A DNA stretch of 44,368 bases. Source: a virus (lineage: Duplodnaviria > Heunggongvirae > Uroviricota > Caudoviricetes). The notes under the pieces are model-generated. The model saw nothing but the letters and a program-made list of their open reading frames with translations, had not been told where the DNA came from and ran no database searches. The stretch is from the IMG/VR virus record IMGVR_UViG_2541047889_000001; one strand, 5' to 3'. Shown piece by piece: positions 29,464 through 42,573 of this stretch. The translations under genes and the position numbers were made by a program. Positions within the stretch are counted from its first letter, which is position 1, and each line of letters begins with the position of its first letter.

Positions 29464-29918
29464 TACGCCTCCTGCTTGTCGCGCAGCAGCTGGAACTCGC
29501 AGCTCTGCGGAATAGTCAGGTGGCAGCCAATATTCATCGCCCAGGCTTCAACCTTACACAGGAAGACATACATCTCTCCGGTATCAAGATCGGAGGTATG
29601 GCGTAACGACTGGATAGTAGTGATTTCGCCGGTTACGACATCAACCAGGTCCTTGGTTTCATAACCGAGGTATGTGTGTTTGAGAGCATCTTTTACCCAT
29701 GCTGCGGTAGCGAACGATTTCCCCCTGCTGATGAGGTATTCACTGATTTCGCTGTACCACATATGGCTGAGTGCATTCTGGGAAAGACTGCGTTTCTCAC
29801 GCCACGGTTTAAGCACCATGCGAAAGCATTTTCCGTCCTCCAGATAAGGCTGGATCTGCTGGCCGATAGCGATGAAGTTACCGCGATGCAGTTTGATGCC
29901 ATCTTGTGGTAGGTTCAC
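29463..29918 (-). CDS. ninB: NinB-family recombination protein (YbcN-like)
   Basis: 151 aa, [62 protein letters not shown]...; matches DLP12 YbcN from memory. Confidence 0.8.
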
Positions 29919-30365
29919 GCTTCACCTCCACAGAGGTCAGACGCTGGATGCAAAAAAACGCAGGTGCATTTCTGCATCTGTGAAGGGAGAAGAGAGTTTG
30001 GATTGTGTGTGCGCATAAACGTCCCCGTTTAGCGCAGAAGTCACCGGAGTTGTTCAGGCTCCGGTGATACAATTATGGCGAATTGATTATTCATAATCAA
30101 ACAAGATAAGGTCTCAAACTTCATGCAAGCCAAGATTTATTTCTGACAGAATTATACAAAGAAGCTATTGGTCAGAATCTACTCGGACTGTAAAACATAC
30201 GCATAACCTTAAGCTCTCACTTTAAGCATTGTTGAAATAATAGCCGTCAAGTACAACCTTAACCACGACTGGGATATTTCTCTGGCTACCACGAGTTGTA
30301 CGGCTATTAAACTGCCGTTAAATTCAGTAAGAGAATTTCATCCGATAAGTCAAGGCATGTAAAAC

Positions 30366-31409
30366 ATGAAAATTAACAAGATATTATCATCTGCAACACT
30401 ATTGTATGGTATGTCAATGGCCATGTCGGTCGGGAGTTGTGCAACACCTGTCCAGACTAATCTTCCTGGTTACACCCCGGGTGCAGATATCATTAGTGTT
30501 TCACCGACCAGAAACCAGGTCGATCTCATTGGTGATGTTGTTTATTCCCAGATAAAAGGAACTCGTTCTGTCAGACAGCTTCACATGTCAGTTCTTGTCC
30601 CGCGAACAAATGATTTAAAACCAGCCATTATTTATTATCCCGGCGGCGGATTCATGTCTTCTGAACATGACAAATTTATTGAAATGAGAATGGCTCTGGC
30701 AGAAGCTGGTTTTGTTGTGGCCGCTGTAGAATACAGAACAATTCCTGATACATTTCCAGCACCAGTTGAGGATGGAAAAGCTGCAATACGTTACCTGAGA
30801 GAGCATGCCAGCAATTATGGGATTGATCCTCAAAGAATCGGAGTTCTGGGTGACTCTGCCGGTGGATGGCTTGCCCAGATGATGGGAACTACAAATGGTG
30901 ACAAAACCTTTGATAAAGGTGACTTTCTTCAGCAATCCTCAGATGTTCAGGCAGTTGCCACACTTTATGGGATTTCTGACTTGTTGAATATTGGCGAGGG
31001 GTTCCCTGAATCAGTGCAGGAGGTTCATCGCTCTCCTGCCGTAACCGAAGCCTTAATGATCAATGGCCCTGCATTCAGAAATTTTGCGGGAGCCCCCATC
31101 ACAGCGTCAAAAGAAAAAGCGCTAAACGCCAGTCCAATCGGACATATGAAAGGAGTAAAACCCCCATTTCTTATTATGCATGGTAGCAAAGACACTCTGG
31201 TTTCACCTGAGCAAAGCGCCAAACTATTCAGGATGTTGAAGAAGAACGGTGATAACGCTGAGTACGTGCTGGTAGAAGGGGCCGAGCATGGCGATAATAC
31301 ATGGTATCAGCCAATTATTATAAACAGAGTTGTTGAGTGGTTTACTAAAAACCTGGGAACCCCCATAAAAAACGCTACCCAACAACAAAAAACAAACGCT
31401 GACCTGTAA
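30366..31409 (+). CDS. Lipoprotein alpha/beta-hydrolase-fold esterase/lipase
   Basis: 347 aa; lipoprotein-type signal MKINKILSSATLLYGMSMAMSVGSC; oxyanion-hole motif YYPGGGF and nucleophile elbow GDSAGG. Flanked by AT-rich DNA and opposite in orientation to the surrounding operon. Confidence 0.75.
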   Translation: MKINKILSSATLLYGMSMAMSVGSCATPVQTNLPGYTPGADIISVSPTRNQVDLIGDVVYSQIKGTRSVRQLHMSVLVPRTNDLKPAIIYYPGGGFMSSEHDKFIEMRMALAEAGFVVAAVEYRTIPDTFPAPVEDGKAAIRYLREHASNYGIDPQRIGVLGDSAGGWLAQMMGTTNGDKTFDKGDFLQQSSDVQAVATLYGISDLLNIGEGFPESVQEVHRSPAVTEALMINGPAFRNFAGAPITASKEKALNASPIGHMKGVKPPFLIMHGSKDTLVSPEQSAKLFRMLKKNGDNAEYVLVEGAEHGDNTWYQPIIINRVVEWFTKNLGTPIKNATQQQKTNADL

Positions 31410-31415
31410 AAAGCA

Positions 31416-31433
31416 GCCCGCACTTATGCGGGC
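31416..31433 (+). terminator. Hairpin downstream of the esterase gene (weak terminator)
   Basis: gcccgca-ctta-tgcgggc immediately after the esterase stop; no strong T-tract on the plus strand. Confidence 0.35.
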
Positions 31434-31758
31434 TAACCTATTTCACTCGATTCAAAAGAAATTATTTTTAATGGGGGCGTGACCAGCCTCTCGGTGCTCA
31501 GATACTTAATGAAGTGGAGTGGCATTCTGGCAAGAGGTTAACATCACCTGTTCGCCATAACCAAGCACGTGCACAAAGTTTGTTATCAGTGAATTGTTTT
31601 GTGATTGGGTATTGTTGAGCTACTAGAGCAAGAATGCCAACATCCAGTGACAGTGCCTATAGTAAAACTATAGCTCAGGGCGCTTCGTTCAAGATAGTTA
31701 ATATCATATTAGTTACTTTACTTTCATACCATAGCACGGTTGAAAAAGTGATTATTAC

Positions 31759-33285
31759 TCAAAAATAAACCTCACCATCAACCATATATTTAAGAGTACT
31801 TATCGCCTGCTGGGCGGATATTACTTTCATTAAAGGATAGTGTTTAAAAACAATGCCATTCATAAAATAGATATCACAGGTTTTATTATCTGTATTAATT
31901 ATAATTTTTTCGAATATTTTATAGGCAAGTGTACGACATAGCTCTCGCCCATTTTTACTGGTTAAATCAATAGCATGAAAATCACCAAGTGAACTCACCC
32001 CTTTACTCTTCAAAGTTTTTAATGATACCGAAGCCCTTCGTAATTCCTTATCTAATAGTCTTATTTTCTCTGCTATAGCGGTAACTTCAGGCGCGACAGA
32101 CAATGCAACGATTAAATTATTAATTTTCATCTGAAGCTCAATAATTTTTAACTCTAAAGTTTCATTAGCATCTTTCTTGTTTTCAACTGGTTGAATTTTG
32201 CTACAATTAAAAAGCAATTCATTAATGATATTATAATCAACCAAATCTCTTTTTATTGATGGCCTGTCACATCGATGTAATCTTCTCATCGGACAAACAT
32301 AATAGCCATGCAAACGTCCAGATACCGCATGAACAATCATGGTATTACCACAAGCCTCACACTTCATAACTGTTCGAAGTAGATTTATTAGCATAGGATT
32401 CTTGCTACTATTGCTAATACCAAAAGGTGCCAACCGAATTTCCTGTACAGCGTAAAACAAATCATCTGATATGACTCTGGGATAATAGCCAGCGATTTCA
32501 CTTATCCCTTTCCCTCTTGCACGATATGAAGGTACGCATATACCTATCAGAGCTTTATTCGCTAATAATTTTTCAATTACAGAAGGCCCCCATGCACTTT
32601 CTTTTCCTGAAAAATTTTTTACAGCATGATCATTTAAATACTTAGCTATTGCATTCAATGATCGCCTTTCCATCCTGAGTTTAAAAATTAGCTCAATCGT
32701 TTTCACCCTGTCGGGGTCTGGAATAAAAGCTGTTCTTTTGTCATCCAATGAGAGCCATCTCGGACAAGACGCCGTCATAATCGTGCCTGATTCCAGTGCA
32801 TCCTGCCGTTTTTTCTTCCATGATAATTTAACCCGACTTGACTTTATCTCGCTTTCTTCATTTGCCCTTTGTGCTATAAGTATGGCTTTTATTAATGAAT
32901 ATGGCTCATTCAATGAGTCTATATTATAGACTGTATTATCGCAAAGAGTTATAACATCAATACCGTGATTCAAAATCAATTTCAGACGCTCAATCGCTTC
33001 ACCGACTTTTTCTCTTGAAAGTCTGTCCAGACTTTCAACTAACAATGTAGTCCCTGGCAATATGTAACCATGTTCTATAGCATCTAAAAATTCCGAAAAA
33101 GCTCCTGATTGTGCATGCTTTCCATTGAATGCGCTTAACCCCAAATCTTCATACGTTACGGTATCAAGGTAATAATCACTATTTACCTTTAGCCATTCAG
33201 TAATAAGCCTTCTCTGGCGGTTTAATGAATCACCAGACATCTGACCTGGTGATGAAAATCGCATATATGCTATGGCTTTTTTCAT
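31759..33285 (-). CDS. Large serine recombinase (resolvase/invertase catalytic domain plus recombinase and zinc-ribbon domains), DLP12 YbcK-like
   Basis: 508 aa; N-terminal AIAYMRFSSPGQ...SLNRQRR catalytic-serine motif; Cys-rich CEACGN...YYVCP...HRC region; coiled-coil C-terminus. Flanked by AT-rich DNA. Confidence 0.85.
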   Translation of the reverse strand: MKKAIAYMRFSSPGQMSGDSLNRQRRLITEWLKVNSDYYLDTVTYEDLGLSAFNGKHAQSGAFSEFLDAIEHGYILPGTTLLVESLDRLSREKVGEAIERLKLILNHGIDVITLCDNTVYNIDSLNEPYSLIKAILIAQRANEESEIKSSRVKLSWKKKRQDALESGTIMTASCPRWLSLDDKRTAFIPDPDRVKTIELIFKLRMERRSLNAIAKYLNDHAVKNFSGKESAWGPSVIEKLLANKALIGICVPSYRARGKGISEIAGYYPRVISDDLFYAVQEIRLAPFGISNSSKNPMLINLLRTVMKCEACGNTMIVHAVSGRLHGYYVCPMRRLHRCDRPSIKRDLVDYNIINELLFNCSKIQPVENKKDANETLELKIIELQMKINNLIVALSVAPEVTAIAEKIRLLDKELRRASVSLKTLKSKGVSSLGDFHAIDLTSKNGRELCRTLAYKIFEKIIINTDNKTCDIYFMNGIVFKHYPLMKVISAQQAISTLKYMVDGEVYF

Positions 33286-33540
33286 GGTGACACCTGCTAA
33301 AGTATGCTTTTATAAACCTTAGTGGTGAGATATGATTTTTGTTTAATTTTTATTTAAAAAGACAATTAAGGTCACATTATCTTGAATATACAACAATAAT
33401 CGTATTGCAATTTTCTTACACCATGATCTTGAAAGATCAAAAGAATGAATAAAAACTAAAGACATTAACAAAAAGCATAAAACGAGGCCCATACAAATAT
33501 ACGAACCTCCATATTTTAGTCGTTTAAAAATAAATTATTT

Positions 33541-33873
33541 TTAATGTGGTGTGCTTCGTGACAATAAATTAATAACCAACACACCGGCACAAATCAACAT
33601 CATGCCTATAATGGCTGGCAGGTCCAACCGTTGGCCGAAAAATCCCCATGATAGTAAGCTAATCAGGACAATACCGACTCCTGACCAGATAGCATAAGCA
33701 ATCCCTGTAGGTATATAAGCCAGCGTCTGAGCTAATAACCAGAATGATGCACAATAACAAATAATTGTACCAACAGATGGCCATAACCGTGTAAAACCTT
33801 CTGAAAACTTCATTAAGGTTGTACCAATGACCTCTGCAAGTATTGCACCACCAAGATAAATATAAGGGTTCAT
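33541..33873 (-). CDS. emrE: Small multidrug resistance efflux protein EmrE
   Basis: Start at ATG 33873 (MNPYIYLGGAILAEVIGTTLMKFSEGFTRLWPSVGTIICYCASFWLLAQTLAYIPTGIAYAIWSG...) with AGGAAAG upstream; near-identical to E. coli EmrE from memory. Confidence 0.92.
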   Translation of the reverse strand: MNPYIYLGGAILAEVIGTTLMKFSEGFTRLWPSVGTIICYCASFWLLAQTLAYIPTGIAYAIWSGVGIVLISLLSWGFFGQRLDLPAIIGMMLICAGVLVINLLSRSTPH

Positions 33874-33940
33874 AGCATATTCTTTCCTGTTCAAACTGGA
33901 GAGAATTGTACTACAGTTTGAACTCAACTCACCTGTTTCA

Positions 33941-34243
33941 TCATTGTGTACCCATTGATGTTCTTTTATATACCCTCAATACCCGTTTCATCGCGGCACT
34001 CTGGCGACACTCCTTAAAAATCAAATTCGCGCTCACCTTTCCTTCCCGTTCTTCTCTGGTAGCGAACCGATAATACACCGTTCGCCAGACCTTACCATCA
34101 ACGACCAGGATTCCTGCCCGCGCCATTTTAGCCACAGCCTGATTTATGCTGGTTACGGTTGCGCCTGTTACCGCGGCAACGTCCTGTGCACAGAAGCTCT
34201 TATGCGTCCCCAGGTAATGAATAATTGCCTCTTTGCCCGTCAT
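33941..34243 (-). CDS. ren: Ren protein
   Basis: 100 aa, MTGKEAIIHYLGTHKSFCAQDVAAVTGATVTSINQAVAKMARAGILVVDGKVWRTVYYRFATREEREGK...; matches lambda Ren from memory. ATG overlaps the P stop (ATGA). Confidence 0.88.
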   Translation of the reverse strand: MTGKEAIIHYLGTHKSFCAQDVAAVTGATVTSINQAVAKMARAGILVVDGKVWRTVYYRFATREEREGKVSANLIFKECRQSAAMKRVLRVYKRTSMGTQ

Positions 34244-34941
34244 ACACTTGCTCCTTTCAGTCCGAACTTAGCTTTGATTTCTGCGATCTTCGCCAGAGCC
34301 TGTGCACGATTTAGAGGTCTACCGCCCATGACAGGAAGTTGTTTTACTGGTTCAGGGATCGCCTCACCACGGTTAATTCTCGCAGTCATATGGACAAGCT
34401 CATCTGCGGCCTTACGGCGTAATTCCGCATCAGTAAGCGCATTGGCCCGCATGTTCTGATACAGGTTGGTAACCAGCCAGTAGTGCGCGTTTGATTTCCA
34501 CGGATAAGACTCCGCATCCGGATACAGGCCTCGCTTCCGGCAATACTCGTAAACCATATCAACCAGCTCGCTGACGTTTGGCAGTCCGGCGATAACGGAT
34601 GCTTCTTCCCGGCACCATGCAACAAACTGCCCGGGTGATGGCAGAAATGGTCGATTCTGCCGACGGGCTACGCGCATTCCTGCGTTAACCTGTTCCATTG
34701 TGGTGATCCCGTTTTCCCGGAAAGCCAGAACCCACTGGCGGCGGATTTCATTCAGTTCGTTCTGGTCACGGTTAGCCAGACTCGCCGGGAAAGTTGCCAG
34801 TAACTGGCTGAACACACCGTTGATGATCTGCGCTACCTGCTGTACCTGCGGCTTTTCGTCGTACTGTTCCGGCATGTTGTTGGCGATCCGGCGCATCTGC
34901 TCACGGTCAAAGTTAACCATCTGTGCGGCGATGTTTTTCAT
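34240..34941 (-). CDS. P: Replication protein P (DnaB helicase loader)
   Basis: 233 aa, MKNIAAQMVNFDREQMRRIANNMPEQYDEKPQVQQVAQIINGVFSQLLATFPASLANRDQNE...; matches lambda gpP from memory. Confidence 0.95.
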   Translation of the reverse strand: MKNIAAQMVNFDREQMRRIANNMPEQYDEKPQVQQVAQIINGVFSQLLATFPASLANRDQNELNEIRRQWVLAFRENGITTMEQVNAGMRVARRQNRPFLPSPGQFVAWCREEASVIAGLPNVSELVDMVYEYCRKRGLYPDAESYPWKSNAHYWLVTNLYQNMRANALTDAELRRKAADELVHMTARINRGEAIPEPVKQLPVMGGRPLNRAQALAKIAEIKAKFGLKGASV

Positions 34942-35915
34942 AAATCCACCCCGTAAATCCAGTCAGTGTTTGTCAGGTCGAGTTTTGATTTTCCGGCTGT
35001 CACGCCAGCCTGTTGCTTGTTACGGTTGATTTCGAGTTGAGTCCACTTGTCGCGGAGTTTGGCCGGACTCAGCACGTTACCGGACCAGAAGTTGTCCTGG
35101 CATGCCCAGCGGAACAGCACGCACATGTCGCGGTGGTTACGTCCGTCACGTTCACGCATCAGGCGGATATCGTTAGCCCACCCTGCAAAATTTGGTTTTC
35201 TGGCTGATGGCGCGATGGTCTTCACCATGTCAAACATCCACTCTGCGGCGGTCAGGTCTTCTGCTGTCCCCCACTTGCTGCCGCTCTGAATTGCAGCATC
35301 CGGTTTCACCACAGGAAGATCGTTTTCTGGCTGGTCAGAGGATTCGTCAGAATTCTCGGACGAAAAAGGTTTTATATTGTCTTTTGTTAGTTTGTCTTTT
35401 GTGTTTACCTGATTCGGGTAAACGCCTTTACCTGATTTGGGTAAACTTTTCTTACCTGATTCAGGTAAATTTACCTCTTTCAGGTAAACTTTATTTTTCT
35501 TACCTGATTCAGGTAAATTTACCTCTTTCAGGTAAACTTTATTTTTCTTACCTGATTCGGGTAATGTTGACCATTCACTGACCACATTATTAATGCCGAT
35601 ATTCCGCCCGCTCTGAATAAAAATCCCACGCTTTACCAGAACACTTTTTGCAGCAGAACACTTGTGCGGCAATATCCCGGTCAACTCGGAAAGTTGCTCG
35701 TTGCTCACCCAATCCAGTTTTTTATTAAAGCCATATGTTTTGCGCATGACAGCCAGGAAGACCAGAAGCTGGTGCTGTGTTAATCCGGCCAGCATCACAG
35801 CTTCCAGCAACTCATTTGCAATGCGCGTATAACCATCATCGAGATCTGCCACGCGCGGCTCCTTTTGTGCCACATCCGGCACTGGAAAATTGAATATCTC
35901 AGCAGTGTTTGCCAT
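34938..35915 (-). CDS. O: Replication initiator O: non-lambda N-terminal iteron-binding domain, lambda-like C-terminal domain
   Basis: Start placed at ATG 35915 (MANTAEIFNFPVPD...) with a strong GGGAGG upstream; an alternative start is ATG 36005, which overlaps the upstream stop. The C-terminal half matches lambda O from memory; the ori iterons lie inside the gene. Confidence 0.88.
   Translation of the reverse strand: MANTAEIFNFPVPDVAQKEPRVADLDDGYTRIANELLEAVMLAGLTQHQLLVFLAVMRKTYGFNKKLDWVSNEQLSELTGILPHKCSAAKSVLVKRGIFIQSGRNIGINNVVSEWSTLPESGKKNKVYLKEVNLPESGKKNKVYLKEVNLPESGKKSLPKSGKGVYPNQVNTKDKLTKDNIKPFSSENSDESSDQPENDLPVVKPDAAIQSGSKWGTAEDLTAAEWMFDMVKTIAPSARKPNFAGWANDIRLMRERDGRNHRDMCVLFRWACQDNFWSGNVLSPAKLRDKWTQLEINRNKQQAGVTAGKSKLDLTNTDWIYGVDL
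35405..35565. repeat. Replication origin iterons (seven 18-bp TTACCTGATTCRGGTAAA-like repeats) within O, including a 48-bp perfect tandem duplication
   Basis: Repeats at 35405, 35428, 35452, 35471, 35500, 35519 and 35548, five with clear dyad symmetry (TACCTGA / TCAGGTA). Units 35452..35499 and 35500..35547 are identical. An AT-rich tract follows at about 35335..35404. Confidence 0.8.
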
Positions 35916-36001
35916 AATTCCTCCCGCAATGAGTGTGTTACGATTTGCACCTGAAAGTCGGTTCTGTTCGCGCAGACCGGCTTTCGCCATTTCCGAACCT
36001 G

Positions 36002-36547
36002 TCATATTGCCCCCAGCATGGTGGTGACCATCGCCATCAGTGGACCAGCCAGATCCGGGTCCACACGAAACATCGACACAATGCCTTCACTCATCTCCTT
36101 CAGTTTCTGGTGGCGTGGTGCGTTGAGAATGACAGCCTGTTTTGCCTCACTGAGTTCCTTTTCCATTTCAGCCAGCCGAGCCATGAAGCTATCCTGCTCA
36201 ACCAGGTGGCCGCGATATTCCAGCGGTAGTACCGCCAGAATTGCCGGGGTCAGTTCACGCACGTTATTTCGGTATTTTTCAGAATCGAATTTGTTATCGA
36301 GGAAGCGGAACAGCTTCTGGCGTGCACGGCTGACATCATCAGGAAAATCGATGGTGCCGCCGCCCTGCTCCCGATACTCATTCACAATGAGTGCGGCAAC
36401 AACATCCTGATTATCTGCAGCCGACCAGGCGCGAACGGCATCACGGATTTTTTCGTGGCCTGGCGCCTGTTTTGTTTGAGAACGATTTATCACCGCAGTC
36501 GGGCTAAATCCGCTAGTCTGTTGGTATGTAAGTGGTTGCATAGTCAT
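36002..36547 (-). CDS. YdaT-like protein in the cII position (Rac-type regulator)
   Basis: 181 aa; segments NEYREQGGGTIDFP and RNNVRELTPAILAVLPLEYRGHL resemble Rac YdaT as remembered. Stop overlaps the upstream ATG at 36005. Confidence 0.55.
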   Translation of the reverse strand: MTMQPLTYQQTSGFSPTAVINRSQTKQAPGHEKIRDAVRAWSAADNQDVVAALIVNEYREQGGGTIDFPDDVSRARQKLFRFLDNKFDSEKYRNNVRELTPAILAVLPLEYRGHLVEQDSFMARLAEMEKELSEAKQAVILNAPRHQKLKEMSEGIVSMFRVDPDLAGPLMAMVTTMLGAI

Positions 36548-36571
36548 TGCCTTATCAGTTAACGCCGCAGA

Positions 36572-36799
36572 TTAGGCGGCAGAATTACTCGCGTTAAACA
36601 ATGGTGCGAGGTCGGGACGAATATCTGCTGGTTTAATCTTTCCACCAGTGGCTGAGACAATTTTCATTACATAGCGGGCATCAATTCCGCCACCGTGTAG
36701 CCAACGCCAAACAGTGGGCTGGGCTACACCGCATAGATCTGCCAGTCGTTTTTGACTACCTGTAATACTGATTGCGAGTTGAATGGTTTGATTTGTCAT
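36572..36799 (-). CDS. cro: Cro-like small HTH regulator (YdaS-type)
   Basis: 75 aa, MTNQTIQLAISITGSQKRLADLCGVAQPTVWRWLHGG...; ATG at 36799 with AGGA upstream. First gene of the rightward early operon, divergent from the repressor gene. Confidence 0.7.
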   Translation of the reverse strand: MTNQTIQLAISITGSQKRLADLCGVAQPTVWRWLHGGGIDARYVMKIVSATGGKIKPADIRPDLAPLFNASNSAA

Positions 36800-36909
36800 T
36801 ATTAATTCCTATTGGTATTACAATGAATAAATAATAGCAATGCGTATTAATCATAACAATAGCAAAACGTGTTTTGACCATCAATACGCAAGCGTATAAA
36901 TTAAAACTT
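36800..36909. promoter_or_regulatory. Right operator/promoter region: divergent pR (minus) and pRM-like (plus) promoters with three operator-like sites
   Basis: Minus-strand pR: -35 TTGTTA (36859..36854), 17-bp spacer, -10 TATTAT (36836..36831). Plus-strand pRM-like: -35 TTGACC (36874..36879), -10 TATAAA (36895..36900), no Shine-Dalgarno before the cI ATG at 36910. Operator-like AATA-N8-TATT sites at 36832..36849, 36857..36873 and 36881..36898. Confidence 0.6.
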
Positions 36910-37602
36910 ATGAAAAAAGAAACTCTTGCTGATCGCTTAAACCTAGCGATGGAACAATCTGGAATGTCTCAAGGCGCTCTTGCAAAGGCGTCTGGCGTAG
37001 CTCAACCCACAATCTGGAGACTGACAAGCGGCAACGCGCGCGGCTCAACAAAAATTGTTGAAATAGCTAATGCATTGGGTGTTCGAACAGAGTGGCTCTC
37101 ATCAGGCATAGGCCCGATGAGAAATGACGGTCAACAATTAGGGAAGCCTACTGCCAACCATCCCAAATACTTCAAGATTGACGTTCTTGATATAGAAGTG
37201 AGTGCCGGGCCGGGAGTCATCAACCGTGAGTTTGTAGAAGTTCTACGCTCGGTTGAGTACTCGTTTGACGATGCTCGTCACATGTTCGATGGTAGGAAGG
37301 CAGAAAATATCCGCATCATTAACGTACGCGGTGACAGCATGTCAGGAACGATTGAACCTGGTGATCTTCTATTCGTTGATATCACGGTTAAATCTTTCGA
37401 CGGTGATGGTATCTATGCGTTTCTGTACGACGACACAGCCCATGTAAAGCGCCTGCAAATGATGAAGGATAAGCTGCTGGTTATCTCTGATAACAAAAGC
37501 TACTCACCGTGGGACCCGATCGAGAAAGATGAGATGAACCGGGTATTTATCTTCGGGAAAGTTATTGGGAGCATGCCGCAGACGTATAGGAAGCATGGAT
37601 AG
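36910..37602 (+). CDS. cI: CI-like prophage repressor (N-terminal HTH, C-terminal S24 LexA-like peptidase domain)
   Basis: Start at ATG 36910 (MKKETLADRLNLAMEQSGMSQGALAKASGVAQPTIWRL...); C-terminal VRGDSMSGTIEPGDLLFVD and a downstream Lys (HVKRL) form the Ser-Lys dyad; Ala-Gly cleavage-type site EVSAGPG. The track ORF starts at an upstream TTG. Confidence 0.85.
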   Translation: MKKETLADRLNLAMEQSGMSQGALAKASGVAQPTIWRLTSGNARGSTKIVEIANALGVRTEWLSSGIGPMRNDGQQLGKPTANHPKYFKIDVLDIEVSAGPGVINREFVEVLRSVEYSFDDARHMFDGRKAENIRIINVRGDSMSGTIEPGDLLFVDITVKSFDGDGIYAFLYDDTAHVKRLQMMKDKLLVISDNKSYSPWDPIEKDEMNRVFIFGKVIGSMPQTYRKHG

Positions 37603-37682
37603 TACCAATTAAAAATTATCAACCGGGCATTGTGCTCATTCAGTAAAACAACTTAATTATTCATTTTAGAATGGAGAACTTA

Positions 37683-38744
37683 ATGGATACTTTAAAATAT
37701 GAGAAATTCTCTGATTTTGATCACAATGACCCATTTTTTGACTCTTTAAAAAAAGATTATAAAGAGTTTCCTCTTTGGTTAGAAAAAAAAGCCAGAGAAG
37801 GAGAATCAGCTTATGTGCTCTATGATGACAAGCATAAAATCGAAGGTTTTATGTATCTAAAAGAAAATGATGATGCAAATGACATTAATCCAGCGCTCCC
37901 ACCAGGACGTCATCTAAAGATAGGAACATTCAAATTTGAATCTAAAGGCACCCTTCGCGGACAACGATTTCTAAAAAAAGCGTTTGACCATGCATTTTCA
38001 TCAAAATCTGATGATATTTATGTTACTGTTTTCGACAAACACGTCCATCTAATAAAACTTTTCCAAACGTACGGATTTTACATTCATGGTGAAAAAGAAA
38101 CACATAACGGGAAAGAGTTTGTATATGCGAGGTCTTTGCATGAGCCTTATGGTGATATTTTATTAGATTACCCTCGAATAATGACATCAAGGGCCAACAA
38201 ATATTTACTGGCGATTTATCCCGAATATCACACTAGACTATTCCCTGATTCAAAACTTGTAAATGAATCACCAGATATTGTCAAAGATATATCCCATGCT
38301 AACAGCATTCATAAAATTTACATATGTGGAATGCGTTCTGTGATGGGAATGAAAAGAGGAGATATCATTGTCATCTATAGAACCGGAGACAAAAAAGGGC
38401 CAGCTCGCTATCGTTCTGTAGCCAGTACATTATGTGTAGTTGAGAGCGTAAAAAATATTTCTGAATTTTTAAGCGAAGATAGTTTTGTAGACTATTGTAT
38501 TCGTTTTAGCGTATTTTCTGAAGATGAACTCAGAAAAATCTATAAAGAACGTCGATACCCTTTCATTATAAGATTCACATACAATCTGTCTTTGTCAAAG
38601 AGACCCAATCGTGCTATTTTAATAGATCATGTGGGGCTAAATGGTTCGCGTGCATTCCGATGGAGTCACTTTAAACTCACAAATGAGCAGTTCTTAAAGA
38701 TCATCGAGTTAGGCAAGATAAATGAAAGTTTTATTATCCATTAA
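37683..38744 (+). CDS. Hypothetical two-domain protein: N-terminal GNAT-like acetyltransferase fold, C-terminal PUA-like/unknown domain
   Basis: AT-rich gene immediately downstream of cI. ATG 37683 is preceded by GGAG; the track starts at ATG 37671, which has no Shine-Dalgarno. GNAT-like motifs LRGQRFLKKAF and LIKLFQTYGFYIHGE. Domain assignment is by eye only. Confidence 0.6.
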   Translation: MDTLKYEKFSDFDHNDPFFDSLKKDYKEFPLWLEKKAREGESAYVLYDDKHKIEGFMYLKENDDANDINPALPPGRHLKIGTFKFESKGTLRGQRFLKKAFDHAFSSKSDDIYVTVFDKHVHLIKLFQTYGFYIHGEKETHNGKEFVYARSLHEPYGDILLDYPRIMTSRANKYLLAIYPEYHTRLFPDSKLVNESPDIVKDISHANSIHKIYICGMRSVMGMKRGDIIVIYRTGDKKGPARYRSVASTLCVVESVKNISEFLSEDSFVDYCIRFSVFSEDELRKIYKERRYPFIIRFTYNLSLSKRPNRAILIDHVGLNGSRAFRWSHFKLTNEQFLKIIELGKINESFIIH

Positions 38745-39099
38745 GCCTGAGTTTGCAGAAAAAATATTGAACGGAACAAAGCGGTTCGAGTTTCGTAAAG
38801 GTATATTCAAAAATCCGCAAATTAGCACCGTTGTTATTTATGCCACGATGCCATTAGGTAAAGTTGTTGGTCAATTCCGTATTGAATCAATACTAAGTGA
38901 CGAACCGGAATCTCTTTGGAAAAAGACGGAAAAACACGCAGGTATTTCTAAGCAATTTTATGACTCATATTATTCAGGTAGAGAAAAGGCCTACGCAATA
39001 AAAATTGGTGAAGTGGAAAGATATAAAGAACCAATTCCTATCTCTGCTCTAGGTAGTAATATTAAGCCACCACAATCATATCTTTACCTACCTGCGTAA
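38722..39099 (+). CDS. ASCH-domain protein (PUA-like)
   Basis: 125 aa, MKVLLSIKPEFAEKILNGTKRFEFRKG...; canonical ASCH N-terminal pattern. Overlaps the upstream gene by 23 nt; AT-rich. Confidence 0.65.
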   Translation: MKVLLSIKPEFAEKILNGTKRFEFRKGIFKNPQISTVVIYATMPLGKVVGQFRIESILSDEPESLWKKTEKHAGISKQFYDSYYSGREKAYAIKIGEVERYKEPIPISALGSNIKPPQSYLYLPA

Positions 39100-39103
39100 G
39101 AAT

Positions 39104-39130
39104 CCCGGCCACCGTGCCGGGTTTTCTTTT
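39104..39130 (+). terminator. Rho-independent terminator after the cI-proximal cassette
   Basis: cccggc-caccgt-gccggg followed by ttttctttt on the plus strand, 5 nt after the ASCH gene stop. Confidence 0.7.
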
Positions 39131-39252
39131 GTCCCCTCATCACACAAACCGTTCGAAAAACCACCACATCCTCCCTTCAGTTATCGCTATGCGATACAAG
39201 TCACAAAATTAATTCTTTTTGCTATCAAACAGTTAATATCAAAACACATCAA

Positions 39253-39297
39253 TCAATAGCAATAAGTATTGATACAGCCAATAGCAATAGCTATTAT
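39253..39297 (+). promoter_or_regulatory. pL-like promoter with two operator-like sites (OL)
   Basis: -35 TTGATA (39269..39274), 17-bp spacer, -10 TATTAT (39292..39297). Operator-like TCAATAGCAATAAGTATTGA (39253..39272) and CAATAGCAATAGCTATTA (39279..39296) share the AATA-N8-TATT pattern with the OR sites. Confidence 0.6.
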
Positions 39298-39370
39298 CAC
39301 CATGTCGCAACAACACAACGATACGGCAATCACCTGATTCACCGTTGCGATGACCGCTTAGATCCGCAGC

Positions 39371-39781
39371 TTGAATTTCAGCAGGCTCCGGGGAGTGCGA
39401 GGGGTGAAGCGGACGCGTGAACGTCGGTGTGACCAGCTGAAATCAACTCAACACCTCATACCTCAGTCGCTTCAACGAGGCGGCTTAGTTATGACAACCG
39501 GCGGCCATCCACCGCCTGAATACGCGCAGAAGTCTCTATATGTTCAGCAGCCCAGCTTACGGGCAGGAGTTTTTATGGTTCATCAACATTACGGAACGCA
39601 GACCGTTAATCGCGGTGCGGTCATGCCAGGAATGCTGGTCAAACACAAAGATGGTACCTGGACTGCATCAGCTAATTTACGCGGACGGCTTTATCTGCAT
39701 CGCGGCATCGAGCGCACTTATACCCGTGATTTGCTCGTGGAAGTTTTTCTCGACGGACGCGGCAACGGCCTGAATCACTAA
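39371..39781 (+). CDS. Possible N-like antiterminator (Arg-rich N-terminal motif); start uncertain
   Basis: First ORF after the pL-like promoter. If translated from TTG 39371 or GTG 39404 the N-terminus contains [16 protein letters not shown], resembling the Arg-rich motif of N proteins. The first ATG is at 39491 ([11 protein letters not shown]...). Confidence 0.35.
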
Positions 39782-39856
39782 TCCCCTTTCCTGTTTACCT
39801 AATCAGCCCGGCATTTCGCAGGCGATATTTTCACAGCCATTTTCAGGAGTTCAGCC

Positions 39857-40153
39857 ATGAACGCTTATTACATTCAGGATCGTCTTGAGGCTCAAAGCTG
39901 GGCGCGTCACTACCAGCAGATCGCCCGTGAAGAGAAAGAGGCAGAACTGGCAGACGACATGGAAAAAGGTCTTCCACAGCACCTGTTTGAATCACTCTGC
40001 ATCGATCATTTGCAACGCTGCGGGGCCAACAAAAAAGCCATTACCCGTGCGTTTGATGACGATGTTGAGTTTCAGGAGCGCATGGCAGAACACATCCGGT
40101 ACATGGTTGAAACCATTGCTCACCACCATGTTGATATTGATTCAGAGGTATAA
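39857..40153 (+). CDS. gam: Gam, host RecBCD inhibitor (short form)
   Basis: 98 aa, [54 protein letters not shown]...; matches the C-terminal 98 aa of lambda Gam from memory. Confidence 0.9.
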
Positions 40154-40158
40154 AACGG

Positions 40159-40944
40159 ATGAGTACAGCACTCGCAACGCTAGCCGGGAAGCTGGCTGAA
40201 CGTGTCGGCATGGATTCTGTCGACCCACAGGAACTGATCACCACTCTTCGTCAGACGGCATTTAAAGGTGATGCCAGCGATGCGCAGTTCATCGCATTGC
40301 TGATCGTCGCCAACCAGTACGGCCTTAATCCGTGGACGAAAGAAATTTACGCCTTCCCTGATAAGCAGAACGGCATCGTTCCGGTGGTGGGCGTTGATGG
40401 CTGGTCCCGCATCATCAATGAAAACCAGCAGTTTGATGGCATGGACTTTGAGCAGGACAATGAATCATGTACGTGCCGGATTTACCGCAAAGACCGCAAT
40501 CATCCGATCTGCGTTACCGAATGGATGGATGAATGCCGCCGCGAACCATTCAAAACTCGCGAAGGCAGAGAAATCACGGGGCCGTGGCAGTCGCATCCCA
40601 AACGGATGTTACGGCATAAAGCCATGATTCAGTGTGCCCGTCTGGCCTTCGGATTTGCTGGTATCTATGACAAGGATGAAGCCGAGCGCATTGTCGAAAA
40701 TACTGCATACACTGCGGAACGTCAGCCGGAACGCGACATCACTCCGGTTAACGATGAAACCATGCAGGAGATTAACACTCTGCTGATCGCCCTGGATAAA
40801 ACATGGGATGACGACTTATTGCCGCTCTGTTCCCAGATATTTCGCCGCGACATTCGCGCATCGTCAGAACTGACACAAGCCGAAGCAGTGAAAGCTCTTG
40901 GATTCCTGAAACAGAAAGCCACTGAGCAGAAGGTGGCAGCATGA
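40159..40944 (+). CDS. bet: Bet single-strand annealing recombinase (Red-beta)
   Basis: 261 aa, [66 protein letters not shown]...; matches lambda Bet from memory. Confidence 0.96.
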
Positions 40945-41621
40945 CACCGGACATTATCCTGCAGCGTACCGGGATCGACGTGAGAGCTGTCGAACAGGGG
41001 GATGATGCATGGCACAAATTACGGCTCGGCGTCATCACCGCTTCAGAAGTTCACAACGTGATAGCAAAGCCCCGCTCAGGAAAGAAGTGGCCTGACATGA
41101 AAATGTCCTACTTCCACACCTTGCTGGCTGAGGTTTGCACCGGTGTGGCTCCGGAAGTTAATGCTAAGGCGCTGGCCTGGGGAAAACAGTACGAGAACGA
41201 CGCCAGAACCCTGTTTAAATTCACTTCCGGCGTGAATGTTACTGAATCCCCGATCATCTATCGCGACGAAAGTATGCGCACCGCCTGCTCTCCCGATGGT
41301 TTATGCAGTGACGGCAATGGCCTTGAGCTGAAATGCCCGTTTACCTCCCGGGATTTCATGAAGTTCCGGCTCGGTGGTTTCGAGGCCATAAAGTCGGCTT
41401 ACATGGCCCAGGTGCAGTACAGCATGTGGGTGACGCGAAAAGATGCCTGGTACTTTGCCAACTATGACCCGCGTATGAAGCGTGAAGGACTGCATTATGT
41501 CGTGGTTGAGCGGGATGAAAAGTACATGGCGAGTTTTGACGAGATGGTGCCGGAGTTCATCGAAAAAATGGACGAGGCACTGGCTGAAATTGGTTTTGTA
41601 TTTGGGGAGCAATGGCGATGA
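40941..41621 (+). CDS. exo: Exo 5'-3' exonuclease (Red-alpha)
   Basis: 226 aa, [65 protein letters not shown]...; matches lambda Exo from memory. Confidence 0.96.
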
Positions 41622-41800
41622 CGCATCCTCACGATAATATCCGGGTAGGCGCGATCACTTTCGTCTACTCCGTTACAAAGCGAGGCTGGGTATTTCCCGG
41701 CCTTTCTGTTATCCAAAATCCACTGAAAGCCCAGCGGCTGGCTGAGGAGATAAATAATAAACGGGGGGCTGTATGCACAAAGCATCTCCCGTTGAGTTAA
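41612..41800 (+). CDS. Small hypothetical protein in the pL operon (62 aa)
   Basis: Overlaps the exo stop; [30 protein letters not shown].... Same position as small lambda early-left ORFs. Confidence 0.45.
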
Positions 41801-41964
41801 GAACGAGTATCGAGATGGCACATAGCCTCGCTCAAATTGGAGTCAGGTTTGTGCCAATACCAGTAGAAACAGACGAAGAATTTCATACGTTAGCCACATC
41901 CCTTTCACAAAAGCTGGAAATGATGGTGGCGAAAGCAGAAGCAGATGAGAGAGACCAGGTATGA
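41773..41964 (+). CDS. Small hypothetical protein in the pL operon (63 aa)
   Basis: [44 protein letters not shown]...; its stop overlaps the next ATG (ATGA). Confidence 0.45.
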   Translation: MHKASPVELRTSIEMAHSLAQIGVRFVPIPVETDEEFHTLATSLSQKLEMMVAKAEADERDQV

Positions 41965-42044
41965 CAACCACTGAATGCATTTTTCTGGCAGCGGGCTTCA
42001 TATTCTGTGTGCTTATGCTTGCCGACATGGGACTTGCTCAATGA
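41961..42044 (+). CDS. Possible 27-aa hydrophobic micropeptide
   Basis: Not in the ORF track. MTTTECIFLAAGFIFCVLMLADMGLAQ; ATGA overlaps on both sides link it to the neighbouring small ORFs. Confidence 0.3.
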   Translation: MTTTECIFLAAGFIFCVLMLADMGLAQ

Positions 42045-42256
42045 CACCTCAGCAAGAAAACGCCCTTCGCAGTATTGCCCGTCAGGCTAATTATGAAATC
42101 AAAAAAGCCAGACAGCAGTTTCCGGATAAAAACGTCGATGACATTTGCCGTAGCGTACTGAAGAAGCACCGCGAAACGGTAACGCTGATGGGATTCACAC
42201 CGACTCATTTAAGCCTGGCGATCGGCATGTTAAACGGCGTCTTTAAGGAACGGTGA
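42041..42256 (+). CDS. Small hypothetical protein in the pL operon (71 aa)
   Basis: Start at ATG 42041 (MTPQQENALRSIARQANYEIKKARQQFPDKNVDDICRSVLKKHRET...). The track ORF starts 22 codons upstream. Confidence 0.45.
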   Translation: MTPQQENALRSIARQANYEIKKARQQFPDKNVDDICRSVLKKHRETVTLMGFTPTHLSLAIGMLNGVFKER

Positions 42257-42354
42257 ACATGAAAAATAAAATCATCATGGAGCTACAGGCTCCTTTTTTA
42301 TTATTCGCATTCACCCTCAAGCGTATTAACCAACAATTCAGGGATTAATGAAAG

Positions 42355-42573
42355 ATGGCAGACATCATTGATTCAGCATCAGAAATTGAAGAATTACAGC
42401 GCAACACAGCAATAAAAATGCGCCGCCTGAACCACCAGGCTATATCTGCCACTCATTGTTGTGAGTGTGGCGATCCGATAGATGAACGAAGACGCCTGGC
42501 CGTTCAGGGTTGTCGGACTTGTGCAAGTTGCCAGGAGGAGATCGAACTTAAGAACAAACAATGGGGACTGTGA
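42355..42573 (+). CDS. TraR/DksA-family C4 zinc-finger protein
   Basis: 72 aa with CxxC...CxxC (CCECGDPIDERRRLAVQGCRTCASC) after an acidic helical N-terminus, the TraR/DksA pattern. Confidence 0.6.
   Translation: MADIIDSASEIEELQRNTAIKMRRLNHQAISATHCCECGDPIDERRRLAVQGCRTCASCQEEIELKNKQWGL

Follow-up and report, generated by a model that had tools for sequence, protein, structure and literature searches.

The stretch of DNA considered here (the window) is the 44,368-nucleotide Caudoviricetes record IMGVR_UViG_2541047889_000001 of IMG/VR, in which positions 36002 to 36799 hold two regulatory genes in the cro and cII positions of a lambdoid phage. The pair is flanked by a divergent cI repressor gene on one side and by the replication genes O and P on the other. 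A preliminary description of this segment had taken it for a Rac-type pair, a Cro-like regulator and a YdaT-like protein, joined to a LexA-like repressor and lambda-type replication genes in a mosaic worth documenting. Here it is read, with a probability of roughly three in four, as the module by which a phi80-type lambdoid prophage decides between lysis and lysogeny, with predicted sites for its CII protein in the cII gene itself and in the nin region.

The cII analogue is on the minus strand at 36002..36541 and encodes a YdaT-family, phi80-type CII of 179 amino acids (aa). The upstream ATG at 36547 gives the 181-aa form of the open reading frame (ORF) list (36002-36547, minus strand). RefSeq uses the second ATG, 36541, as do most homologues, which are 179-180 aa long, and it is therefore the likely start of cII. 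In profile searches, the 181-aa protein matched the YdaT family, both as PF06254 (YdaT_toxin; E 7.6e-30, 103.6 bits against a cut-off of 21), the sole Pfam family matched, and as PHROG 163, "CII-like transcriptional activator" (E 4.4e-67). BLASTP aligned it with the CII of phage phi80 at 67% identity over the full length of 179 residues (E 2e-93) and with K-12 Rac YdaT at 35% over 96 residues. No BLASTP alignment to lambda CII was obtained at E values up to 100.

A profile of 32 homologues matches the crystal structure of the CP-933P YdaT (8bt1) across the helix-turn-helix (HTH) domain with an E of 5.9e-9, and also matches 3c4r, the O6:H1 homologue of CP-933P YdaT. The recognition helix reads QKLFRFLDN in the window CII and QKIFRWLDK in CP-933P YdaT. 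An arginine of this helix (Arg60 in CP-933P, Arg57 in Rac) is reported as the single invariant residue of the family (PMC9986795). It is present here, where FRF aligns with the FRW of 8bt1, and is at least 90% conserved in the 32-sequence alignment; helix residues R72, R74, Q75, and K76 are invariant. Compared to Rac and CP-933P YdaT, the subfamily of the window CII has an extra N-terminus of 28 residues, predicted to be disordered, and about 40 further C-terminal residues with two predicted helices. AlphaFold2 places helices in the order expected of a POU-like five-helix HTH domain with a long tetramerising helix behind it (30-40, 47-58, 70-84, 88-104, 107-113, and 119-138), with a mean pLDDT (per-residue model confidence) of only 57.9 from the 32-sequence alignment. 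The model is too weak to carry the family placement, which rests on the sequence profiles. Together, the matches identify the product of 36002-36541 as a YdaT-family orthologue of phi80 CII. The claim that the cII position holds a YdaT-like protein and not a lambda CII thus stands. The label "Rac-type" is imprecise, given 67% identity to phi80 CII against 35% over 96 residues to Rac YdaT.

The equivalence of YdaS and YdaT to Cro and CII goes back to Casjens 2003 and Jobling 2018 (PMC5917428). Reporter assays, footprinting, and a crystal structure later supported it (PMC8630535, PMC9986795, PMC11879457), and with the genetics YdaT counts as an established functional CII. CP-933P YdaT activates PRE933P, and its homology to phi80 CII was noted by Jurenas et al. 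(PMC8630535). YdaT binds TTGATT-N6-AATCAA, the YdaT-box, as a tetramer (PMC9986795). The Rac copy of this box covers the start codon of ydaT, and the activation of a reverse racR promoter, up to 29-fold, depends on it; Rac and CP-933P YdaT cross-react despite 30% identity (PMC11879457).

The cro analogue, a YdaS-family HTH protein of 75 aa, is encoded at 36572..36799 on the minus strand. It matches PF15943 (YdaS_toxin; E 9.6e-15, 54.6 bits against a cut-off of 30) and PHROG 35, "transcriptional repressor" (E 9.4e-24). P22_Cro and, by sequence, the Cro structures 3bd1 and 5w8y are matched weakly, and identity to Rac YdaS is 32%, a further point against a specific tie to Rac. The gene is the first of its operon and divergent from the repressor gene, with operators between both. 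The small Cro-like regulator described next to the YdaT gene is borne out.

The CI repressor (36910..37602, plus strand, 230 aa) is composed of an HTH domain (Pfam HTH_3) and a LexA-like peptidase S24 domain (Peptidase_S24, E 1.3e-18). Its translation contains Ala99-Gly100, Ser143 (in GDSM), and Lys180 (in VKRL). The spacing of 37 residues between Ser and Lys is that of LexA. The domains, the Ala-Gly site, and the Ser/Lys dyad identify CI as a LexA-like repressor that would be autocleavable, in agreement with the earlier proposal of a LexA-like CI of the P22/434 cleavable kind.

The OR region (36833..36898) contains the operator repeat AATAGCAAnnnnTATT at 36833-36848 and 36858-36873 and a related palindrome at 36883-36898. 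Promoter-like sites overlie these copies, one pR-like (36859..36831, minus strand) and one pRM-like (36874-36902, plus strand). The OL region (39255..39295) has two perfect copies of the AATAGCAAnnnnTATT motif, at 39255 and 39280, 25 bp apart. With up to two mismatches, the pattern is found 15 times in the window against 3.75 expected, and the matches cluster at OR and OL. The layout shows CI and Cro to be transcribed divergently across three putative operator-motif copies, with the motif recurring at OL. The -10 of the pRM-like promoter (TAAATT) stops 7 nt before the cI ATG (36874-36910, plus strand), and no Shine-Dalgarno (SD) sequence is visible. This suggests that the cI mRNA is leaderless, as in lambda and CP-933P (PMC8630535).

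Two genes occupy the rexA/rexB position of lambda downstream of cI (37671-38744 and 38722-39099, both plus strand). They match components A (E 1.9e-133) and B (E 6.8e-52, with an ASCH domain) of PDC-M11, a candidate defence system in PADLOC. The interval from OL to kil (39100-39575) showed no N-like gene, and the cro-cII gap of 24-30 nt (36548-36571) is too short for nutR or tR1. The related phage HK639 is annotated with a put-like antiterminator RNA.

The replication initiator O, downstream of cII, matches Phage_rep_O (E 9.3e-34) and is placed at 34938..35915 on the minus strand, with the ORF open to an ATG at 36005. The stop codon of the YdaT gene (TGA, 36004-36002) overlaps this ATG (36005-36003) as ATGA at 36005-36002, as had been read from the sequence. 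The accompanying suggestion that the ATG could extend O upstream fares less well. Alignment to lambda O starts only at residue 31, the SD GGGAGG is 5 nt upstream of the ATG at 35915, and the phi80 record starts its gene 15 at the equivalent ATG. Among relatives with an O-type gene, the distance from the cII stop to this ATG is 84, 85, or 87 nt, which puts the overlapping ATG out of frame; the 86-nt distance of the window puts ATG 36005 in frame by chance. For these reasons O probably starts at 35915, not at 36005, where RefSeq and some phage depositors start it.

The 86-nt gap between cII and O (35916..36001, read on the plus strand) is in the position of the antisense RNA of phi80 (M3) and lambda (oop). 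It is annotated as "M3 RNA", "homolog of lambda oop RNA", in the phi80 record and as "M3-like RNA" in HK639. The gap is 82-89 nt long in most relatives and loci, whichever replication gene follows. Antisense to it, a promoter-like TTGAAT-17-CATAAT with a TG is found at 35890-35918 (plus strand), and a 13-bp hairpin is formed by 35953-35985. There is no U-run such as that of the M3 terminator, and the sequence cannot be aligned with phi80 M3. An oop-like RNA in the gap of the window is possible. A search of the whole window with Rfam gave no family at gathering score, and only chance-level matches at the cII-O gap and the nin leader.

The way in which this CII would act is proposed from the published Rac and CP-933P YdaT. 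As a tetramer with an HTH domain, the protein would bind TTGATT-N6-AATCAA and activate transcription leftward into the repressor gene, thereby filling the role of lambda CII without being related to it.

The first predicted site is inside cII itself. A YdaT-box over codons 17-22 (36476..36493) reads GTGATA-AATCGT-TCTCAA on the sense strand and is a degenerate copy of the consensus. A predicted leftward -10, TAGTCT of the TAnnnT class (36514..36519, plus strand), is 20 nt away, and the start of transcription would be near 36526. CII would act at this palindrome, centred at about -41.5, the usual place of an activator overlapping the -35, and the resulting pRE-like promoter would read through cro into cI. 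This geometry, which we infer, differs from the published placements.

The box is the tenth-best match to a position weight matrix (PWM) in the 44-kb window, and 47 of 57 relatives reach a score of 3.5 or more at this position. Constraint was assessed in 86 unique genes (176 codon columns) and 72 unique 5' ends of the cII subfamily. Seven of the 176 columns have an invariant or almost invariant third base, and four of these encode Met or Trp. Of the remaining three, codon 9 always ends in T although it encodes six different amino acids, codon 17 always ends in G (Met, Leu, or Val), and codon 21 always ends in T, again over six amino acids. Their positions coincide with the antisense -10 and the two half-sites. 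The consensus of codons 17-22 is xTGATw-N6-xxTCAa, which resembles the YdaT-box. Positions +23, +27, and +28 are invariant in the 72 unique 5' ends and form a TAnnnT on the opposite strand at a distance of 20 nt from the box. Rac has the footprinted box, then the same 20-nt gap, then TATGAT. Divergent members of the cII subfamily contain near-consensus copies of the box (TTGATTTTTGAAAATCAG, ATGATAAATCGCAATCAA, and TTGATAAATCGCTATCAA).

A different constraint might instead account for the invariant third positions, be it translation starting internally at codon 17, mRNA structure, or the binding of another protein, with the real promoter elsewhere, for example in cro as reported for Rac PracR4. 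This is unlikely, yet it has to be taken seriously. Codon 17 is always ATG, GTG, TTG, or CTG, no sigma-70-like site was called on the plus strand in 36000-36870, and Wons et al. map the responsive Rac promoter about 190 bp from the box (PMC11879457). An internal start, however, leaves the invariance of T63/C64 and of A23...T27 A28 unexplained, and no SD is conserved before codon 17. Moreover, the half-sites match the experimentally defined YdaT-box, and the TAnnnT spacing is the same in Rac.

Further candidates near the start codons were considered. Unlike in Rac, no consensus YdaT-box lies across the start codon of cII in the window, and a conserved motif, ATGCAATCACTTACGTATCAACA, tried as a start-codon box of cII was rejected because it did not fit the palindrome. 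A candidate weaker box covers the start codon of cro (36788..36805; TTAATA-ATGACA-AATCAA, minus strand). It is the second-best PWM match in the window, but conservation is lacking among relatives that share the cro type, and it is weakly supported. In Rac, a perfect palindrome CTGATT-N6-AATCAG with two outer mismatches to the YdaT-box is located in ydaW (record L004 6119-6136), 2.4 kb downstream of ydaT, and may be a further Rac site.

The second predicted site is in the nin region. A perfect YdaT-box, TTGATT-ATGAAT-AATCAA (30083-30100), is part of a minus-strand promoter (30072..30100) with the -10 CATAAT at 30077-30072. It is the sole match to TTGATT-N6-AATCAA without mismatch in the 44-kb window. 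The box is followed by 5 nt and CATAAT, and its left half-site forms the -35 at 17-nt spacing. In the phage 82 record X92588, the same -35 and -10 are annotated as those of a putative promoter, with orf33, orf151 (ybcN), ninE, rus, and Q downstream of it.

This element is present in at least 120 viral contigs and in 2823 of 5426 complete E. coli genomes, including the DLP12 prophage of K-12 (record L192 1284-1470). In 90 unique viral-contig copies, the half-sites are essentially invariant, while the spacer has 32 forms and the upstream flanks are unrelated. The box is perfect in phage 82 and K-12 DLP12; phi80 has a palindrome with two mismatches. All 25 phage records in which the promoter part was matched carry a YdaT-type cII, from at least six cII lineages of 52-100% identity, against 39 YdaT-type and 163 lambda-type records across the phage collection. 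Where viral contigs extend at least 7 kb upstream, the cII is YdaT-type in 26 and lambda-type in 2. Since the box is constant across immunity types and the YdaT recognition helix is invariant, YdaT/CII is the best candidate binder of the predicted nin site. No description of this site was found in the searchable literature.

The promoter is followed by a structured leader and a ylcH-like ORF of 33 codons (29915..30066, minus strand). Hairpin 1 is at 30042-30066, hairpin 2 at 30011-30035, and the ORF at 29915-30016. In hairpin 2, the loop shows an SD-like GGGA, and the 3' arm contains the ATG (30016) of the ylcH/orf33 ORF. The ORF overlaps the start of ybcN, and K-12 ylcH and phage 82 orf33 are annotated there. 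The fold z-score of the leader RNA is -4.59. Base pairing is preserved in most of the 29 variants of the hairpin 1 arms, and the three stem types of hairpin 2 are all paired around a constant GGGA loop. Two identifications of the leader were rejected. The anti-sRNA (anti-small RNA) AgvB, suggested by a CA-rich linker, is 51-60 nt long and is located 3' of pR' (PMC4104026), and there is no evident similarity to the putL-like RNA of HK639.

CII probably also binds this perfect palindrome, which supplies both -35 and spacer to the ylcH-ybcN promoter. The operon continues to Q in phage 82 and K-12 DLP12, and the region leads to Q in phi80 as well. Because the palindrome spans -35 to -18, such occupancy of the core promoter would most likely mean repression. 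Late genes would be delayed during the establishment of lysogeny, similar to the effect of lambda CII through paQ.

It is improbable that CII is mainly a delayed-early lytic activator of the promoter at 30100, driving ylcH-ybcN toward Q, with repressor establishment secondary. Such a role would fit the apparent lack of an N homologue and the short cro-cII gap, without room for nutR or tR1. It would also fit the morons that separate pR from Q and the convergent hydrolase gene between ren and the promoter. The box is the best-conserved part of the nin promoter, and this promoter has to stay quiet in lysogens. In K-12 DLP12, rusA is downstream of the same promoter and is silent without YdaT expression, which is counted for the activator role. 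The position of the palindrome, together with the 17-nt spacer and a -10 that agrees in five of six positions, is nevertheless typical of a repressor, and the phi80 record names the gene cII, "decision making protein".

Joined together, the two sites lead to a tentative proposal, which is rather less secure than the decision module itself. A single 18-bp palindrome may serve both tasks of lambda CII, with the weak copy activating the pRE-like promoter and the perfect copy repressing the ylcH-ybcN...Q promoter as a protein-only counterpart of paQ. As K-12 DLP12 carries a perfect box, Rac YdaT would then cross-regulate DLP12.

Several observations weigh against the reading of the module and its CII sites. 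The intragenic box of the window has four mismatches, one of them a C at a position that is always A in the nin boxes. The published Rac promoter is at the distance from the box given above, and in CP-933P the main operator is reported to cover the start site or to lie downstream of it. Two viral contigs with a lambda-type cII carry the leader, one with a one-mismatch box and the other without the box, and one YdaT-type contig has no nin box. The nin promoter looks strong (TTGATT-17-CATAAT), yet CII is absent in a lysogen, so that repression by CII alone cannot explain why Q stays off there. Finally, the CII model is too poor to confirm the fold; Foldseek with it against the PDB returned nothing below E 1.9.

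Pfam names the families YdaS_toxin and YdaT_toxin, RefSeq names the product "toxin YdaT domain-containing protein", and overexpression of Rac YdaT is toxic (PMC11879457), all of which would fit a toxin-antitoxin system captured in a prophage. For the pair in the window this is very improbable. One genome per species was surveyed at 61 fetched loci; an upstream divergent ORF was identifiable in 55, and in all 55 it is an HTH repressor. In these 55, cII lies between a repressor and downstream genes, and most loci have the 82-89-nt gap and then a new gene. Unrelated Cro types are swapped freely before cII, as would not be expected of a cognate antitoxin, and the pair is no self-contained two-gene operon. 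In published work, YdaS and YdaT act as transcription factors, and toxin-antitoxin behaviour was not found (PMC5917428, PMC8630535, PMC9986795).

The replication genes and the borders of the segment bear on its proposed mosaic nature. P (34240-34941) and ren (33941-34243), together 33941..34941 on the minus strand, are about 96% identical to lambda DNA, with a match to Phage_lambda_P, and the C-terminal 145 residues of O are nearly identical to lambda O. With the Phage_rep_O match, this agrees with the lambda-type replication genes of the preliminary description. Lambda DNA at 96-97% identity covers the heads and tails, 33968-35404 (ren, P, and the C-terminal half of O), and 39775-42550 (kil/gam to exo). 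On the left, it stops at 35404, the end of the iterons in O and a classical exchange point. The non-lambda segment, 35405-39774, comprises the origin-binding half of O with the iterons, cII, cro, cI, the two PDC-M11 matching genes, and OL. The ori iterons (35404..35564) include a 48-bp tandem duplication (2.5 copies, 98% identical). The O annotated in strain DA33135 lacks 48 bp (16 codons), as one unit fewer would give, and iteron number appears to vary between otherwise identical prophages.

The prevalence of the module was assessed with the 1.8-kb segment 35900-37700 against phage records and the 5426 complete E. coli genomes. The segment is 100% identical in six phage records, which represent five phages (4A7, Lambda_4C10, D2, 1W, and 3W). 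It is covered to at least 80% in 717 genomes (about 13%) and partly present in 2228. An S24 repressor partners this cII type in 36 of the 55 species-level loci, the remainder being short HTH-only repressors, and many unrelated types of cro are found in front of it. By this survey, the S24 repressor is the usual partner of this cII, in the majority of loci across Enterobacteriaceae, and the mosaicism is real but routine. A rare recent recombinant of a Rac-like prophage with a P22- or 434-like phage, to which the lack of lambda DNA similarity in 35405-39774 between flanks of 96-97% identity might point, is refuted by the identical phages, the genome prevalence, the locus survey, and the same layout in phi80, HK639, and HK225, and can be given next to no probability. 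The cro/cII/cI module is phi80-type, already known, and widespread; the mosaic that had seemed unusual was already documented.

According to its GenBank record, phi80 has the order cI, gene 30 (a 73-aa HTH protein), cII (180 aa), M3 RNA, gene 15 (O-like), and gene 14 (P-like). The records of HK639 and HK225 have the same cI-cro-cII-replication order. Phage phi80 CI is a RecA-cleavable repressor, with which its size and its alignment to the S24 repressor of the window agree. Phage phi80 resembles the window in gene order, orientation, an S24 CI, a Cro of about 73-75 aa, and its 67% identical CII. It also shares the 85-86-nt gap, an O-like gene at the same SD-ATG followed by a P-like gene, and a palindrome-bearing nin leader upstream of ybcN, in which hairpin 1 is annotated "IR4". 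Identity is only 23% for cI and about 34% for cro, and immunity specificity therefore differs. Unlike the window, phi80 has an N gene and nut sites, and its nin palindrome is TTGATA-N6-TATCAA where the window has the perfect consensus.

HK639 shares a Cro of 75 aa, a CII of 181 aa (53% identical), a CI-like repressor of S24 size, and the M3-like RNA; its nin box, TTGATTTTCTGGAATCAA, is perfect and precedes the same leader. It differs in the replication initiator and the pL-region genes, and it relies on a put-like antiterminator RNA. Nothing in the window obviously corresponds to its annotated putL-like RNA.

The Rac racR-ydaS-ydaT system of E. coli K-12 shares the Pfam families of Cro and CII, the YdaT-box by the region encoding the start of the HTH, and the 20-nt spacing to the antisense TAnnnT. 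RacR, by contrast, is a short HTH protein without S24 domain, and Rac YdaT has neither the 28-residue N-terminal nor the roughly 40-residue C-terminal extension. The identities to the window proteins are the low ones given above (YdaT and YdaS), and the replication genes ydaU and ydaV differ from O and P. The CP-933P paaR2-ydaS-ydaT system of E. coli O157:H7 has nearly the same recognition helix, and its operator TTGATT-N6-AATCAA (PMC9986795) occurs perfectly in the window. Its YdaT, however, is about 30% identical and only over residues 24-106, its PaaR2 repressor is fused to a toxin-antitoxin operon, and the prophage is defective.

Lambda has the same positions of cI, cro, and cII, and the C-terminal half of O, P, and ren of the window are lambda-like. 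The logic proposed here would also parallel that of lambda pRE and paQ, with an activator site and -35 region within the 5' end of the activator gene and a second target near Q. The CII proteins have no sequence similarity, however, and the window has no nutR or tR1 between cro and cII. The lambda CII site is the direct repeat TTGC-N6-TTGC, whereas an inverted repeat is expected for the window CII, and the second lambda target is an activated antisense promoter where that of the window would be a repressed sense promoter.

The nin promoter of the window is separated from ren by DLP12-like morons (30366-33927). These include emrE, a pump of the SMR (small multidrug resistance) efflux type, a ybcK-like large serine recombinase gene (31759-33285, minus strand), and a BD-FAE/alpha-beta hydrolase gene (30366-31409, plus strand) that converges on the early rightward operon.

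In phi80, the pairing of a YdaT-type CII with a cleavable CI is textbook knowledge, and as first described the segment holds nothing new. Two predictions were not found in the searchable literature, namely the exact place and geometry of a pRE-like promoter for the whole phi80-type cII family and a conserved second operator on the promoter upstream of the nin and Q genes. The annotation can be corrected in that the "toxin YdaT domain-containing protein" is a CII-like regulator and O would start at 35915, not 36005. If confirmed, the proposed sites would explain the coupling of repressor establishment to late-gene delay in N-less or phi80-like phages, and they would provide a concrete case of cross-talk between cryptic prophages.

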